NCBI GenBank assembly: GCA_051313645.2
Contig: JBNRSN020000010.1
Location: 66,650,001-66,714,000, forward strand
Source of the DNA: Centroscyllium fabricii
Lineage: Eukaryota
Direction: 5' to 3'
DNA length: 64,000 nucleotides
Under the pieces are notes generated by a model that had not been told where the DNA came from, ran no database searches, and saw nothing but the letters and a program-made list of their open reading frames with translations. The position numbers were made by a program, and so were the translations under genes. Shown piece by piece: positions 6,258-59,343 of this stretch (within the stretch, counting starts at the first letter, position 1; the number at the start of each line of letters is the position of its first letter).

Positions 6258-9200
6258 TGATAGGCCATCAATAATCCAAGCGAGAGGTTCATCAATAATC
6301 CAAGCGAGAGGTTCAAGGACTTAAAGTCGGGGCAAGATGGCGACCAAGATGGCTGCCCCCACTGCACGCACGCGGCGGTGGAGGAGCTGGAGGCGGGATT
6401 CCCTCTGCAGACCTTGCCGAAGTGCCCTTTCTTCCCGCATCTGAAACAGGTGGTGCCTTTCGCTGGGCACAGAAGCTTCGAGTGCCTGTCCTGACCGCAG
6501 AAGTAACATTTCGGGCCCCGATGCATCGCGGCAGTAGTGGGGCTCCTGGGTGGAGGCTGGGGCTCCGATGGTGCTGCGCTGGCCTGAAAACTGGGAGGCG
6601 AAGATTGCTGCCCCCACGGTGCGCACGAGGCGGGTGGGCCGCGTGGTCTGAGGAGTAAGACTCAGCGTTCCTCTGGGCCATATCTAGCGATCGCGCTATG
6701 TCCATTGCTTGCTTTAAATCTAGCTTCTCTTTCTCGAACAGCCTCTGCCTAATGTAATTCGAGCTGACGCCTGCGATAAAGGTGTCACGGATCAGCTCCT
6801 CTGTGTGCACGGTGGCAGACACAGCCTTGCAATTACAGTCTCTGCCCAGTACTTTTAGGTGCAACATAAAATCCTCCAGTGACTCACAAGGCCGCTGCTT
6901 GCGGTTAGTTAGAAGATGTCTGGCGTATACCTCATTCACTGGCCGCATGTAGTGGGCCTTCGGGGTGGTGCAGGCATCTTCATAGCTGGGGGCATCCTTA
7001 ATGAGGGTTGAGACCCGATGGCTCACCCGATTCTGTAGGATACCCAGTTTCACGTCCCCGGTGGTGGTCGCCGATGCTATCGTGGCGGCGGAGGTTTCCA
7101 GAAAAAATTCAAAGCACTGGAACCAGTATTCGAACTATGTAGCGGCATCAGAGGCATGGGGGTCTAAATCTAAGCGCTCTGGTATCAGGAGCCGATCCAT
7201 CTCGATGTTTTAGTTATTAAAATTGATAGGCCATCAATAATCCAAGCGAGAGGTTCAAGGACTTAAAGGTAGGCTTTTAATAACTAAGAACTGTGGGGAA
7301 CATGGAGATGGCAAAAGCATTAAACGAATATTTTGTATCAGTCTTTACCGTAGAAGACATTAAAAATATTCCAACGCTGGATAAACAGGGGGCTATAGGA
7401 ATGGAGGAGCTAAACACTATTAAGATCACTAAGGAGATGGTATTAGGTAAATTAATGGGACTGAAGGTGGATAAATCCCCTGGGCCTGATGGATTACATC
7501 CAAGGGTCTTGAGAGAAATAGCGGTGGGGATTGTGGATGCATTGGTGATAATTTTCCAAAACTCCCTGGAGACAGGAAGGGTCCCGGTGGATTGGAAAAT
7601 GGCTAATGTAACACCTATATTTAAAAAGGGAAGTAGACAGAAGGCTGGTAACTATAGACCGGTTAGTCTAACATCTGTGGTGGGTAAAATGTTAGAGACC
7701 ATTATTAAAGAAACACTGACGGGGCACTTGGATAAACATGACTTAATCGGACAGAGTCAGCATGGTTTTACGAAGGGGAAGTCATGTTTAACTAATTTGC
7801 TCGAATTCTTTGAGGAAGTAACATCTCGGGTGGATAAAGGGGAACCGGTGGATGTGGTATACTTGGACTTCCAAAAGGCTTTTGACAAGGTGCCACATAA
7901 GAGACTATTGCTTAAAATAAAAAATTATGGGATTGGGGGAAATATATTAGCATGGGTAGAGGATTGGCTTTCAAATAGGAAGCAGAGAGTTGGGATAAAT
8001 GGTTCATACTCGGGATGGCAATCGGTGACTAGCGGTGTTCCGCAGGGGTCGGTGCTGGGACCCCAGTTGTTTACAATCTACATAAATGATTTGGAGGAGG
8101 GGACCAAGTGTAATATATCAAAGTTTGCAGATGACACAAAAATGGGAGGAAAAGCAGGGAGTGAGGAGGACAGAAAAAGCCTGCAAAAGGATATAGATAA
8201 GCTAGGTGATTGGGCAGCAACCTGGCAGATGAAATTTAATACTGACAAATGTGAAGTTATACACTTTGGAAAAAAAAATCATAGGGCAAGTTATTTTCTA
8301 AATGGGGAGGAGCTGCGTTGTAATACAACGCAAAAGGACCTGGGGGTATTAGTGCATGAATCACAAAAAGTTAGTATGCAGGTGCAGCAAGTGATTAGGA
8401 AGGCCAATGGAGTCTTAGCCTTTATTGCTAGGGGGATAGAGTATAAAAACAGGGAGGTCTTGCTGCAGCTGTACACAGTATTGGTGAGACCACATTTGGA
8501 ATACTGTGTGCAGTTTTGGTGTCCATACTTAAGAAAGGATGTACTTGCCCTGGAGGCAGTGCAGAGAAGGTTTACACGGTTAATTCCAGCGATGAGGGGG
8601 TTGACATATGAGGAAAGGTTAAGTAGGTTGGGACTCTACTCTTTAGAGTTCAGAAGAATGAGAGGCGATCTTATTGAAACGTATAAGATCGTGAGGGGCC
8701 TTGATCGGGTGGATGCGCCAAGGATGTTTCCAATGATCGGGGAGACTAGAACTAGGGGGCATAGTCTTAGAATAAGGGGGGGCTCTTTTAAAACTGAGAT
8801 GAGGAGAAACTTCTTCACCCAGAGGGTGGTTAATCTATGGAATTCACTGCCCCAGGGAGCTGTGGAAGCGGGAACATTAAATAAATTTAAAACCGAAATA
8901 GACTGTTTTTTAGCTGACAAGGGAATTAAGGGTTACGGGGAGCGGGCAGGGAAGTGGACCTGAGTTATGGTTAGTATAGTAAGACCTGAGTGATCTCCTG
9001 GACAAGTTTCGATCGCCTGGATTGGGGTCGGAGAGGAATTTCCCGGATTTATTTTCCCAAATTGGACCTGGGTTTTTATCCGGTTTTTCGCCTCTCCCAG
9101 GAGATCACACGGTTCTTTGGGTGGGAGAAGGGTGATAGTGGTACGAAGGTTAGGGTAGGATCAGCAACGATCTTGATGGGGAGGGGGCGGGCTCGGGGGG

Positions 9201-9572
9201 CCGATTGGCCTACTCCTGCTCCTATTTCTGGGGTTCTAGTGTTCTTGTGTTCCTGTGTTCTTGTGTCTTCTGTTCTTGTGCTATTGTGTTGTGTTCTTGT
9301 GTTCAGCCATGAACGTATTGAATGGCGGTGCAGGCTCGACGGACCGAATGGTCTACTCCTGCACCTATTTTCTATGTTTCTATGTTTCCCACACTGAGTT
9401 CTCCAGGTCGAATGGCTCAAGCCACTCTGGAGTCCTCTGTATAACAAAAGACAAGGGCGGAGCCCGACATATACAATAGACAAAGGTGGGCGGTACATAC
9501 ATTTCATACATTCCTAGCACAGGCAAGTCCAGGTGAAAAGCACAGTCTGATGAACATACATATTTCATCACA
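6258..9572 (-). mobile_element. Gypsy LTR retrotransposon B, non-autonomous (gag only), with its 5' LTR split by a CR1 insertion
   Basis: 5-bp TSD ATGGC at 6253-6257 and 9573-9577. Gag from ATG 7200 (RHLLTNRKQRP, IRDTFIAG, two zinc-knuckle motifs). LTR-end sequence TGATAGGCCATCAATAATCC appears at both 6258 and 7224. The 5' LTR is 7224-7292 plus ~9388-9572; pol is absent. Confidence 0.88.
7293..9387 (+). mobile_element. Young 5'-truncated CR1 (HER1-like) LINE with an uninterrupted RT ORF
   Basis: Open 556-aa ORF 7293..8963 with [45 protein letters not shown] and RPHLEYCVQFW. The 3' UTR ends in a (TTCTATGT)n tail. Confidence 0.96.
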
Positions 9573-22485: not shown

Positions 22486-23622
22486 AGAGTCATAGGGTAA
22501 TACAGCACAGAAAGAGGCCCTTCGGCCCATCGCGTCCGTGCCGCCCATCCAGCCCAGTCTATACTGGTCCCATTTTCCCGCATTTGGTCCGTAGCCTTGT
22601 ATGCTGTGGCATTTCAAGTGCTTATCCAAATGCTTTTTGAATGTTGTGAGGGTTCCCACCTCTACCACCCTCTCAGGCAGTGAGTTCCAGACTCCAACCA
22701 CCCTCTGGGTGAAAAAGATCTTCCTCACATCCCCACGATACCTCCTGCCCCTCACCCTAAAACTATGCTCCCTAGTTATTGACCCCTCAACCAAGGGAAA
22801 AAATTCCACTCCATCCACCTTATCTATTCCCCTCATAATTTTGTATGCCTCAATCAGGTCCCCCCTCAGCCTTCTCTGCTCCAAGGAAAACAACCCCAGC
22901 CTGTCCAGTCTCTCTTCATAGCTGAGGCTCCCCAGCCCAGGCAGCATCCTGGTGAAACTCCTCTGCACCCTCTCCAAAGCTATTACATCCTTCCTATAGT
23001 GTGGCGACCAGAACTGCACACAGTACTCTAGCTGTGGTCTTACCAGCGTTTTGTACAGCTCCATCATAACCTCCCTGCTCTTATATTCTATGCCTCGGCT
23101 AATGAAGGCAAGTATCCCATATGCCTTTTTAACCACCTTATCCACCTGTCCTGCTGCCTTCAGGGACCTATGTACCTGCACACCAAGGTCCCTCTGCTCC
23201 TCTGTCTTCCCTAGCGTCCTACCATTCATGGTGTATTCCCTTGCCATGTTAGACCTACTGAAATGCATCACCTCACACTTTTCAGGATTAAATTCCATTT
23301 GCCACTGTTCCGCCCATCTGACCAACTCATCTATGTCGTCCTGCATGTTGCGGATTTCCTCCTCAGTATTTACCAACCCCCCAACTTTTGTGTCATCTGC
23401 AAACTTACTAATCATGCCTTTTACATTCATATCTAAATCATTAATATAGACTACAAACAGCAAGGGACCCAACACCGATCCCTGCGGTACCCCACTGGAC
23501 ACAGGCTTCCAGTCACAAAAGCAACCTTCGACCATCACCCTCTGCCTCCTGTCACTAAGCCAGTTTTGGATCCACTGTGCCAAGGTACCCTGGATCCCAT
23601 GGGCTCTTACCTTCTTGACCAG
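22486..23622 (-). mobile_element. Young 5'-truncated CR1 LINE inserted antisense into the older CR1
   Basis: Open ORF 22444..23583(-) with GVPQGSVLGP, FADDTK and RPQLEYCVQFW; 3' tail at the left end. Confidence 0.95.
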
Positions 23623-29398: not shown

Positions 29399-31137
29399 CG
29401 ATCAAAATCACTAAGGAAGTGGTACTCGGTAAATTAATGGGGCTCAAGGTGGATAAATCACCTGGACCTGATGGCTTACATCCTAGGGTCTTGAGGGAAG
29501 TGGCGGTAGGCATTGTGGATGCATTGGTAATAATTTTCCAAAAGTCCCGGCAGACTGGAAAACTGCGAATGTAACACCCTCATTTAAAAAAGGCAATAGA
29601 CAAAAGGCTGGAAATTATAGCCTAACGTCTGTCGTGGGTAAAATTTTAGAGTCCGTTATTAATGAGACAGTAACAGGACATTTTGATAAACTTAATTTAA
29701 TAGGACAAAGTCAGCATGGTTTTACGAAGGGGCAGTCTTGTTTGACAAATTTGTTGGAGTTCTTTGAGGAAGTAACATATAGGGTGGATAAAGGGGAACC
29801 AGTGGACGTAGTATATCCAGACTTTCAAAAGGCATTTGACAAGGTGCCGCACAAAAGATTACATAAAAAATCACGGAATTGGGGGTAATATTCTGGCATG
29901 GATAGAGGATTGGCTATCTAACAGAAGGCAGAGAGTTGGGATAAATGGGTCATTCTCAGACTGGCAATCGGTAACTAGTGGTGTTTCGCAGGGGTCAGTG
30001 CTGGGTTCCCAACTCTTTACAATTTATATTAACGATTTGGAGGAGGGGACCGAGTGTAACATATCAAAGTTTGCAGATGATACTAAGATGGGAGGAAAGT
30101 GGTGAATGAGGAGGACATAAAGAACCTGCAGGGGGACATAGACAGGCTAAGTCAGTGGGCAGAGATTTGGCAGATGGAGTACAATACGGGAAAGTGTGAG
30201 GTTATGCATTTTGGCAGGAAAAATCATAGAGTGGATTATTATCTTAATGGCAAGAAACTGGAAAGTACTGCAGTACAAAGGGATCTGGGGGTCCTGGTGC
30301 ACGAAACTCGAAAGGTTAGTATGCAGGTGCAGCAAGTAATTAAGGCGGCCAATGGAATGTTGGCTTTCATTGCTAGGGGGATAGAATATAAAAATAGGGA
30401 GGTATTGCTTCAGTTGTACAAGGTATTGGTGAGACCGCACCTGGAATACTGCATACAGTTTTGGTGTCCATACTTAAGAAAGGACATACTCGCTCTCGAG
30501 TCAGTACAAAGACGGTTCACTCGGTTAATCCCAGGGATGAGGGGTTGGACATATGAGGAGAGGTTGAGTAGATTGGGACTCTACTCATTGGAGTTCAGAA
30601 GAATGAGGGGAGATCTTATTGAAACATATAAGATTGTGAAGGGGTTGGATCGGGTGGATGCGGGCAAGATGTTCCCAATGATGGGTGAAACTAGAACTAG
30701 GGGGCATAAACTTAGAATAAGGGGCTGCTCTTTCAAAACTGAGATGAGGAGAAACTACTTCACTCAGAGCGTAGTAGGTCCATGGAACATGCTGCCCCAA
30801 AAAGCTGTAGAAGCTACTTCATTACATAAATTTAAAACAGAAATAGACAGTTTCCTAGTAGTAAAAGGGATTAAAGGTTAAGGGGAGCGGGCAGGAACTT
30901 GGACATGAGTCTAGGTTCAGATCGGTCATGGCCCTGTGGGTAGTGGAGCGGGCCCAGGGACCGTGTAGCCTGATCCTGCTCCTATTTCCTGTGTCGAATT
31001 CTGTTCGATGCAGGAGATGCTTCTGTGATAGTAGGTTGGTTGTTAGGATCAGATCAGCCATGATCTTATTGAATGGCGGGGCGGGCTCGAAGGGCCGATT
31101 GGCCTACTCCTGCTCCTATTTCTTATGTTCTTATGTT
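29399..31137 (+). mobile_element. 5'-truncated CR1 LINE, frameshifted
   Basis: RT peptides in ORFs 29326, 29634, 29836 and 30099; (TTCTTATG)n tail at ~31120-31137. Confidence 0.93.
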
Positions 31138-44058: not shown

Positions 44059-45705
44059 ATAAGAACATAAGAAATAGGAGCAGGAGTAGGCCAATCGGCC
44101 CCTCGAGCCTGCTCCGCCATTCAGCAAGACCATGGCCGATCTGATCCTAACCTCAATTTTATTTTTACTCTCCATCCCGCCCAAACCCATGTGATCACCC
44201 GGGAGAGGCGAAAAACCAGATAAAAAACCCAGTGGCCAATTTGGGAGAAAAAATCTGGGAAATTCCTCTCCGACCCATCTAGGCGATCGAAAACTGGTCC
44301 AGGAGATCACCTGGGTGATCTGAACCTAGCCTCATGTCCACTTACCTGCCCGCTCACCATAATCCCTAATTCCCTTTAAGGCCCTGTCACACCTAGGCGT
44401 TTTAGCCAGCGTATGCAAATTTGGCTAAAACGCTGAACTTTTGACTTTTTTTCAGTTTTGGGCGTATAATAGCGTATTCATAACGTATGCATAACGTATT
44501 AGTAACGTACACAGAACGTATCGATAACTTACAGATAACTTATACCAACGAATGCTTAGCGTGTTGTCGGCGTTCTCAACTTATGCCCAACGATAGTCTA
44601 ACGTATGCATAGCGCGCGGCAGCGTATTGCCGACGTTTTAGATAAATGTTGATACGTTGGCATACAAAATCGTCAAGGTGTGACAGGGCATGACAGGGGC
44701 ACAGGTAAGGTGTGTTCAACGATCGCCTAACGTGCCTACAACGTATGGCCAGCGTATGCGGAACGTGTGAGTCATACGCTGGATAAGTTGAGATTTTTTG
44801 TGCATGCTCAAAAATTCTCGACTTACTCGAAGTACAACGACGTATGCAACGTATGCCCAGCGTATGCCCAGCGTTCTCGTAACGTATGCATAATGTACCC
44901 ATAACGTATCCGACGTAACCCAGCGTTTTAGCCAAATTTGCATACGCTGGCTAAAACGTCTAGGTGTGACAGGGCCTTTACTTTCAAGAAACTGTCGATC
45001 TCTGTTTTAAGTTTATTCAATGTGTGGTAGCTTCCAAAGCTCTCTGGGACAGCAAATTCCACAGCCCCACCATCCTCTGAGTGAAGAAGTTTATCCTCAT
45101 CTCAGTTTTGAAATGGCAGCCCCTTATTTTCAGATTATGGCCCCTAGTCCTAGTTTCACCCACCATTGGGAACATCCTCACCGCATCCACCCGATCAAGC
45201 CCTCTCACAATCTTATATGTTTCAATAAGATCGCCTCTCATTCTTCTGAACTCCAATGAGGAGAGGCCCAATCTACTCAACCTCTCGTCATATGTCAGCC
45301 CCCTCATTCCCGGAATTAACCTAGTGAACCTTCTTTGCACTGCCTCGAGAGCAAGTATGTCCTTTCTTAAATATGGATACCAGAACTGCACGCAGTATTC
45401 CAGGTGTGATCTCACCAATACCCTGTACAACTGCAGCAAGACTTCCCTGTTTTTATACTCCATCCCCTTAGCAATAAAAGCCAACATTCCGTTGGCCTTC
45501 CTGACCACCTGCTGCACCTGCATACTAACTTTTTGTGTTTCCTGCACCAGGACCCACAGATCCCTTTGCACTGAAGTACTTTCCAGTTTCTTTCCATTTA
45601 GATAATAACTCGCTCTCTTATTTTTCCTGCCAAAGTGCATAACTTCACACTTTTCAGTATTATATTCCATCTGCCAAATCTCTGCCCACTCACTTAGCCT
45701 ATCTA
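44059..45705 (-). mobile_element. 5'-truncated CR1 LINE with structured 3' UTR module, split by a MITE
   Basis: ORF 45017..45670(-) is the CR1 C-terminus; 3' UTR 44059-44345 is homologous to 8964-9240. Confidence 0.93.
44379..44977. mobile_element. PIF/Harbinger MITE (ACGTAT-rich), copy 1
   Basis: ~58-bp TIR AGGCCCTGTCACACCTAG...; TSD TTA on both sides. Confidence 0.9.
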
Positions 45706-57660: not shown

Positions 57661-59040
57661 CTGATGTAATAGATGGCAGGTCAAGTAGAGATGACTGAAG
57701 CAATCTGTCAATGGTGTGATAGGTTCTACCAATCAAGTCATGGTGGATGCCGATTTTGCTGGAAACACTTGCAACCTCTAGAAAGCTAAATCTGTGCTCA
57801 CAATGGATTCAGCAACAGCATCTACCTTCGGAAAGTGATCAGCTGTGAGGTGGGACTTTTTATTGTACTTTTCACGCTATGCACTAATGAGCTGCATCAA
57901 TGGCCACTCCACTTCCGCTTCAGATTCACAGATGTGGTTCCTGAGCTGCGTGATTCCCGTGCTCATCCAGGGAAATTTGAAAAGTAGGGTTAAAAAGGCG
58001 CTTAAGCGTCTGACAAGTACCTAATAATGGTTTAAATTGGCTTGCCCGCCTCTGCCATTCGGTCGCTGCTGCACTGCCAAACGCGCCCAAGGGAAAGGCG
58101 CGTGGGGGTGGGATGATGGCAGTTTCACGACCCGCTGTAAGATATTTCAAATTTCCCACCTGACCTGCCTCCTATCACGCCCGCACAGACACCAGAAAAT
58201 TCCGACCCATATTTCAGTTAGCGACTGGTCAATCTATGGAACATGCTCCCTCGGGAGTTGGTGGAAGCAGTTAGTATTGATTCATTAAAATGCAAATTAG
58301 GTAGATTTCTTCCAGAATATAACATTTTGGGATACAAGAGTAATTTAAGATATGACATATGGTCTTTATAGCCTACTTAGGAGGAACAGATGGCTTTGGA
58401 CCTATGGTTCCTAAAACTCTCCACTACTGGCTCTTCCTTGCATCATGTCTGGGACTAATTGATAAAGATTGATTGCTGTGATTAGTGAACATCTCTATTA
58501 TCATTGTATCATGCGAGTATCCGGATGGTAGAAGGTGAACTAGATGGATCTTGATCTTTTTTTCATCTAGCAGTTCCCATGTTCCTACATATGCACAGAT
58601 CCAACAAAAGCCATCTTCCCCCATCCCTCCACCATGTGCTCTCAACCAGAGGTGTTGGAGCCAATTGAAACCAGTCATCAAAACTTGCTTCTGCATTGGG
58701 GATAAGGTATTTTTAATGATTTAAAATAAATAAAGTTTAAGTTGTAATTTGAAGCAAACTTGTAATCTGAAAATCTTTACAGGTGTCGGTATGGCACAGT
58801 GAAACACTAACCTTAATTTCAGTGAATTGGGGTTGTCTGTCCTCATGAACTCATACAAAAAAAAGAACAAATACCATCCAGTTCATTAAACCTGCCCATC
58901 CAAACATGGTACAGCCATGTAGACCATTGACCACCCTTTAGTCACACAATCTGCTGGGAGAGGGAAGAAACCTGAGGCCAATTTAAGCAAAATTCTGGGA
59001 AATTCATGTCTGACTCCAAGGCAGTTAATCAAAACCCAAG

Positions 59041-59343
59041 CTGTTAAAAAAGCATACAGATGTATTGGCTTTATAAATAGATGAATAGAGTACAAAAGCA
59101 GGGAAGTTATGCTAAATGTTCATAAATCACTGGTTAGACCTCAGCTAGAGTATTGCGCCCAATTCTGGGCATCACACTTTAGAAAGAATGTCAAGGCCTT
59201 GGAGAGGGTGCCGAGGAGATTTACTAGAATGGTACCGGATATGAGTGGTTTCAGTTATCTGGAGAGACTAGAGAAACTGGGATTGTTCTCCTTAGAGCAG
59301 AGAAGGTTAAGGGGAAATTTAATTGAGTTGCTTAAAATTATGA
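59041..59343 (+). mobile_element. CR1 RT C-terminal fragment
   Basis: LVRPQLEYCAQFW...GLFSLEQRRLRG. Confidence 0.85.

Follow-up and report, generated by a model that had tools for sequence, protein, structure and literature searches.

An ENE-like three-way-junction RNA module in the 3′ UTRs of CR1 retrotransposons of Centroscyllium fabricii

A module of 119 nt lying behind ORF2 of CR1 retrotransposons is a real, selected structured RNA of CR1 3′ UTRs, and is apparently undescribed. It was analyzed in a 64,000-nt stretch of Centroscyllium fabricii DNA (the window) and in copies collected across the genome. Judged from its sequence, the module is best called an ENE-like variant, and by analogy with known elements we lean, with modest confidence, toward its being an ENE-type stability element that captures poly(A) in a triple helix. 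Should the ENE reading fail, a conserved undescribed structured RNA remains. Also new are the transfer of the module between CR1 lineages and its invariant bulged-G hairpin and apical loop. Neither an ENE nor this fold was found in CR1 in the literature searched, although the supplementary lists of the primary ENE surveys, which lay outside the search, could include it. As far as the available portions of two reviews go, ENEs occur in viruses, in MALAT1/NEAT1 and in transposons of plants and fungi, with only stickleback retroviruses named among vertebrate mobile elements (PMC7583470, PMC13541005); the fish cases of the ENE survey are, per review, stickleback retroviruses. CR1 is described in an excerpt of PMC13343379 as the dominant retrotransposon of most vertebrates.

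Position and fold of the module

The module occupies 8990–9108 on the plus strand, as delineated by a pairing check, the minimum free energy (MFE) fold and alignment, and in this copy it starts 26 nt past the ORF2 stop. Features of the host element are present on both sides. Upstream, the open 3′ part of CR1 ORF2 (7284–8963, plus strand, stop at 8961–8963) encodes the reverse transcriptase (RT) and C-terminus, and its frame matches Pfam RVT_1 with an E value of 1.7e-33. Downstream, the CR1 terminal hairpin region followed by tandem repeats (9150–9237, plus strand) is common to LINE and SINE tails that carry no module, and is presumed to be the RT-recognition site. We take the element to be a CR1, following the first-pass annotation, and presumably a HER1-like one. 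A second CR1 tail, of an older type, stands in tandem behind the first (9300–9388, plus strand). Two different terminal hairpins in tandem, with short tandem repeats between them, are seen in lineage-A CR1 copies (window 9150–9388; L044:2293–2501).

The whole module is a three-way junction closed by P1, a 12-bp helix (8990–9001/9097–9108) in which 12 of 12 pairs are Watson-Crick. An 8-nt linker (9002–9009) leads from P1 to P2, a hairpin at 9010–9030 (strands 9010–9017/9024–9030) that the alignment shows to hold an invariant U·G pair and a bulged G9015; the letters G9015–C9017 are invariant in all 22 aligned copies. The remaining arm (9031–9096) is ENE-like. It is built from P3 (9031–9036/9091–9096), a lower U-rich loop (9037–9042/9084–9090), the 6-bp spacer duplex P4 (9043–9048/9078–9083), an upper U-rich loop (9049–9055/9073–9077), P5 (9056–9059/9069–9072) and an apical loop (9060–9068) whose TTGG-like core is conserved in the alignment; all of these features lie on the plus strand. 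The first-pass annotation had proposed a multibranch fold of about 120 nt just past the ORF2 stop, and its five helices were all located where it had placed them. The MFE fold of the window copy gives the same helices at −55.3 kcal/mol (z −3.6, with 1 of 200 shuffles equally good). The pseudoknot suggested along with them, AAUUU with loop AAAUU, fared differently: the pairing is possible, but 0 two-sided changes were seen in 22 sequences, and 500 of 500 shuffles did equally well.

A structured RNA in the 3′ UTR is in itself familiar from stringent LINEs such as CR1 and L2, for which a terminal 3′ stem-loop is described in the available parts of PMC5135761 and PMC3747384. That stem-loop is separate from the module, lying about 45 nt downstream of it, and is common to LINEs and SINEs without the module.

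Copies, lineages and transfer between CR1 clades

The 7.2-Gb genome contains at least 42,515 copies of the module, counted by an exact pattern for the 5′ half, while the reversed control pattern gave 0; copies were gathered by sequence patterns since similarity search skips very common words. In 264 kb of DNA (the window and 200 kb of its neighbors), 10 intact modules were found, all between the CR1 stop and the terminal hairpin. The same 264 kb holds 38 tail matches, 10 directly after a module and 2 as second tails of such copies, and the remaining 26 belong to LINEs or SINEs without the module. Because these 26 related tails do without it, mobilization and RT recognition can also do without it, and the earlier view of a modular cassette distinct from the terminal RT-recognition hairpin is upheld.

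With looser patterns, 165 distinct copies were collected and sorted by their flanks, a set that is not a random sample. They fall into lineages A (23 copies), B (56), C (31), D (13), E (20) and F (13), and 9 lie outside these, one of them a false match. By loose motif matching, 128 of the 165 adjoin a CR1 stop region or tail in sense orientation, and 13 further copies have CR1 3′ UTR flanks. The modal position in four lineages is 21–28 nt past the ORF2 stop and 96–118 nt ahead of the point where the tail motif ends. A module-bearing CR1 3′ UTR fragment with neither ORF nor tail, and with AATAAA about 55 nt downstream, was also noticed inside a composite repeat of about 49 kb. This repeat forms tandem arrays at several places and contains Gypsy-like and CR1-like open frames (G000:C1:111.72–112.03 Mb and others); the module fragment occurs in a 3.25-kb tandem unit as well (loci L124–L131, L133–L143, L205–L210).

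Within the window, the second copy of the module (44190–44314, minus strand; blastn range 44187–44310) belongs to lineage B, lies in a CR1 3′ UTR between two duplicated segments of about 25 nt, and is 88% identical to the copy at 8990–9108 by blastn. It had been said to keep all helices while swapping a pair in P4. The swap from G-C to A-U is present; P1, however, has a U·U mismatch and a U·G wobble, one pair is lost at the top of P2, and the MFE fold of this copy refolds P2. The ORF2 end of this CR1 is interrupted by a MITE-like element of about 600 bp (44378–44978) with 58-nt terminal arms that are 98% complementary. An old copy, recognized earlier near 58946–59040, was recovered at 58945–59052 on the minus strand both by blastn (67% identity, E 0.006) and by a covariance model whose training set did not include it (E 7.6e-4). 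It is a decayed copy of an older CR1 lineage and no longer folds by itself (z +1.9). The CR1 ends at 22486, 26222 and 31137 do lack the module, as had been noted, and the covariance model gives no match at them. The last of these (30895–31137, plus strand) has a duplicated tail in the module's place; the duplicate tail is decayed, and a few letters resemble the 3′ end of the module. In the tree of ORF2 ends the 31137 copy groups with lineage B, weakly (80/79), and judging from its sequence it may have lost the module secondarily.

The module is 82–90% identical between the majority sequences of lineages A–D, whereas their 40-nt flanks are 48–70% identical (shuffled sequence, 49%) and their ORF2 ends 45–75%. 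For the sister pairs A-B and C-D, the identity of the module is 89% and 88% against 73% and 75% for the coding end. The module is more conserved than the neighboring coding DNA. Contigs of two other organisms, labeled C and D, cover the module, and coverage is lost about 10–25 nt beyond the module ends. In a tree of 22 ORF2 ends, C/D/E separate from A/B at 100/100, and A/B fall among elements without the module; four rows of the tree are long-branched and unreliable, probably because truncated copies contributed unrelated upstream DNA. The module is present in two deeply split CR1 clades. From the sequence comparisons it is probably native to the C/D/E-side clade and was moved into the A/B clade of the window by recombination. 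The simplest history would be a capture from the C clade through template switching. The lineage B module sits between two copies of a segment of about 25 nt. In two chimeric CR1 copies (L027 and L055), the module stands between an ORF2 end of C type and a tail of A/B type. The description of the module as optional has to be refined, since the module is native to a second clade, was probably recombined into that of the window, and may have been lost secondarily from the 31137 copy.

Covariation and distant homologues

That the structure itself is selected, as first proposed, is supported by covariation, by conservation and by homologues found with a model. Among 22 aligned copies, 89.9% of the cells pair, while controls slid along the alignment are 33–55% paired, and RNAalifold recovers P1–P4. 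Both sides have changed at 12 of 35 pairs, a number reached by 0 of 500 shuffles, although this set includes four closely related metagenome rows that represent one or two events and supply most of the covariation. In the genome copies alone, two-sided changes occur at 5 of 36 pairs, and 67 of 500 shuffles were as high; the fraction of paired cells and the covariation score of these copies lie above every shuffle. The cleanest covariation within the genome is that of P4, with two independent swaps and a two-pair extension in lineage F. One swap, G-C for A-U, separates lineage A from B and C, and its paired changes G9045A and C9081T also occur in contigs of organisms A and D. The other, U-A for G-C, is found in lineage D (2 of 18 rows, plus 2 with G·U). 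On the sense strand, G·U outnumbers A·C by 53 to 20. The C-G to U-A changes in P2 of old copies count weakly because CpG decay can mimic them and one search pattern selected for them. A loop-loop contact between the GCC of P2 and the GGC of the apical loop is possible, and showed no covariation in the 22 copies.

Building a covariance model from genome copies, a check proposed along with the original observation, led to distant homologues. One metagenome scan gave eight loci, of which four (L070, L072, L073, L075) were chance matches and were used as controls. The other four, on vertebrate-like GC-rich contigs, score 33–39 bits (E 2.6e-8 to 5.9e-7) with a model made from the genome copies only, whereas chance loci with the same pattern score at most 13.6 bits with that model. 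In the homologues, junction, bulged-G hairpin, lower U-loop and apical motif are preserved. These four loci swap two pairs of P3, rebuild P1 and P4 with other letters, and have no upper loop; P1, though of other sequence, still pairs. No CR1 ORF was detected near them by tblastn on 0.8–1.5 kb (best E 2.3). The metagenome variant of P3 was sought in the Centroscyllium genome, giving 16 matches, all of them decayed copies of the usual form, and the fully compensated form of P3 gave 0 matches there. A scan of viral contigs yielded one match (L067), by chance. At three of the metagenome loci (L068, L069, L071), one or two more degenerate units follow the full homologue and retain mainly the U-loop hairpin; these loci resemble a repeated GC-rich gene or repeat family.

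U-rich loops and the competing readings

The arm contains two stacked internal loops in which U faces U, each closed above by C-G pairs, with the 6-bp duplex between them. At the lower loop, three positions per side are U in 66/66 and 64/66 cells of the 22 copies, the flanking helices are 97% and 85% paired, and the C-G pair closing the loop on its upper side is kept in 21 of 22. Both loops are present in genome lineages A, B, C and F and are less clean in D, and the metagenome homologues have one loop only. The P4 spacer varies by compensation while the loops stay U-rich. An ENE-like descriptor run over 264 kb matched ten times within modules, hitting 6 of 11 of them, and a single time outside, against 0–2 matches in ten shuffles, although it was written after the module had been seen and misses the MALAT1 ENE of the host and 5 of the 11 modules.

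Two U-rich loops separated by a short duplex define the double ENE, or dENE (PMC13541005 and PMC7583470, in the portions available). The dENEs of plant and fungal transposons, for example that of the rice hAT element TWIFB1, share with the module the two-loop arm, the C-G closure, the interrupted lower stem, and a setting behind the ORF, close to the 3′ end of a transposon RNA that has no introns. The differences are several. The host of the module is a vertebrate non-LTR element, while the reviews, in the sections available, name plants, fungi, slime mould and stickleback retroviruses. The arm belongs to a three-way junction whose bulged-G hairpin and apical loop are conserved. Its lower-domain stem is interrupted and the 3′ bulge has 1–2 nt, against the 3–4-nt bulge and interrupted A-minor stem given for the dENE lower domain in an excerpt of PMC7583470. 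A conserved adenosine triad and a 3′-end pocket motif are also ascribed to dENEs in the available text of PMC13541005. The module is not filed as a dENE member, its bulge being different and its triad, pocket, tail and triplex hypothetical. A further precedent is the ENE of the Arabidopsis Copia93 element Evade, whose loop, according to PMC12501189, engages oligo(A) in a triplex, depends on its U's and on the adjoining G-C pairs, and increases both RNA level and mobility. It is the same kind of U-rich loop in a retrotransposon 3′ UTR, between ORF and 3′ end; Evade, however, is an LTR element whose poly(A) tail is known and whose function has been tested, while the module belongs to a LINE ending in tandem repeats and is known from sequence.

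We chose the poly(A)-clamp reading because of the double-ENE loop architecture, the Evade precedent, the MALAT1-like 3′ strand and the descriptor matches. In such a mechanism, the intronless Pol II transcript of CR1 would be polyadenylated somewhere beyond the terminal repeats, and its poly(A) tail would fold back about 100–150 nt into the U-rich loops to form U·A-U triple helices, with 3–4 triples in the lower loop and 4–5 in the upper. The clamped tail would slow deadenylation and nuclear decay and raise the yield of retrotransposition-competent RNA, and this gain may have driven the capture of the module by the CR1 clade of the window through template switching. The first-pass annotation had listed a stability element among its candidates, which by analogy fits the double-ENE-like architecture, and had not singled out the two U-rich loops. 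If true, a CR1 poly(A) clamp would show how an intronless LINE RNA escapes nuclear decay, would bear on whether stringent LINEs that leave no genomic poly(A) use a poly(A) tail at all, and would seed a genome with potential stability elements by the tens to hundreds of thousands. Natural CR1 lineages with and without the module allow a direct comparison.

Several observations sit less well with the clamp. At about U3 × U3, provided that the AA/UU pairs form, the lower loop is short. On its lower side, two A-U pairs and a bulge precede the G-C pairs; the lower-side neighbors of both U-rich loops are A-U rather than G-C, and at the lower loop only an AA is conserved. Poly-pyrimidine runs also grow by slippage. 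No conserved A-tract was found downstream, the longest A run within 120 nt being 2 in 23 of 23 lineage-A copies and 4–5 only in lineages B and F. An A-rich stretch containing AATAAA does occur in lineage B, about 30 nt past the module and upstream of the terminal hairpin (44150–44165, minus strand), and such a stretch is absent from lineages A, C and D. Canonical CR1s have no genomic poly(A) tail, Zenon being the only element of the CR1 group with one in the portion of PMC13343379 available. The bulged-G hairpin, the three-way junction and the conserved apical loop are not explained by an ENE. The module could instead be a protein-binding platform, recognized through these same three features, that serves to export the unspliced RNA from the nucleus, to translate ORF2 or to assemble the RNP, with the U-loops as flexible hinges. 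The most invariant letters are indeed not confined to the U-loops and are found in P2, at the junction and in the apical loop; the GCC of P2 and the TGG(C) of the apical loop are conserved together and, in most lineages, could form a loop-loop pairing, and the module is intact in homologues that have no upper U-loop. The loop-loop pairing, however, loses one pair in lineage A1 besides its lack of covariation, no export or translation element of Rfam matches, and the strict U identity of the loops and their C-G closure are left unaccounted for. We regard this alternative as rather improbable, yet keep it in serious consideration because of the missing A-tract and genomic poly(A), the short lower loop with its A-U neighbors, and the invariant hairpin and apical loop.

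A self-cleaving ribozyme of new or variant fold, trimming the 3′ end of read-through CR1 transcripts, is very unlikely, and the ribozyme candidacy raised at first is not borne out. The compact conserved multibranch fold with invariant unpaired letters would suit it, ribozymes are reported to occur in other non-LTR elements (PMC8501958), and the minus strand has GAAA in 22/22 and GGCGAA in 11/22 copies. For the known self-cleaving classes (hammerhead, HDV-like, twister, pistol and hatchet), however, Rfam gives nothing even when the E limit is relaxed to 10, and the core motifs are absent or mis-arranged: the hammerhead CUGANGA is missing from both strands in 22/22, and the GGCGAA of the minus strand has the partners of both its flanking helices on the downstream side, which differs from the HDV topology. 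The wobble asymmetry points to the sense strand, and a cut here would sever the terminal hairpin, which lies about 100 nt further on and is retained in every intact copy. Rfam gave no relevant family for the whole window at gathering scores, for the module at E ≤ 10 or for the homologous loci at E ≤ 1, while the mascRNA of the host was recovered as a positive control. Still less credible, and largely refuted, is a passenger origin, in which a MITE-like inverted-repeat insertion hitchhikes on a successful CR1 lineage and folds as a by-product. In lineage B, P1 does lengthen into a near-perfect terminal inverted repeat of 16 bp, and the module there lies between the two copies of the segment of about 25 nt; that duplication, however, is accounted for by recombination between CR1 clades. 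The copies are confined to CR1 3′ UTRs or their fragments (10 of 10 intact ones in 264 kb), P1 still pairs with different sequence in the metagenome homologues, and conservation exceeds that of coding DNA. UCON3 and SINE body domains were weighed as identities by description and set aside. A SINE middle body is described in an excerpt of PMC7245038.

Returning to the ENE-type stability element, a bolder generalization is that poly(A)-clamping triple-helix elements form an ancient, jawed-vertebrate-wide class that is set in a three-way junction with an added regulatory hairpin, passes between CR1 clades as a fitness cassette, has also been taken up by other repeats and by host loci, and is perhaps the source pool of the MALAT1/NEAT1 triple helix; we consider it unlikely at present. 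The 3′ end of host MALAT1, with ENE, A-rich tract and mascRNA, was located at L211:1420–1557 (G000:C768:456735; RF01684, 66.4 bits). Of the module covariance models, one hit it at E 6.9 on the wrong strand and the other gave no match. In MALAT1 the loops are longer and broken by C and G, the A-rich third strand is encoded in the genome, and a tRNA-like element follows downstream; the module has none of these, and the window contains no mascRNA match. The 3′ strand of the MALAT1 ENE is nevertheless built like that of the module, with GG, a U-tract, a bulged G and then a CCUUC pyrimidine lower stem.
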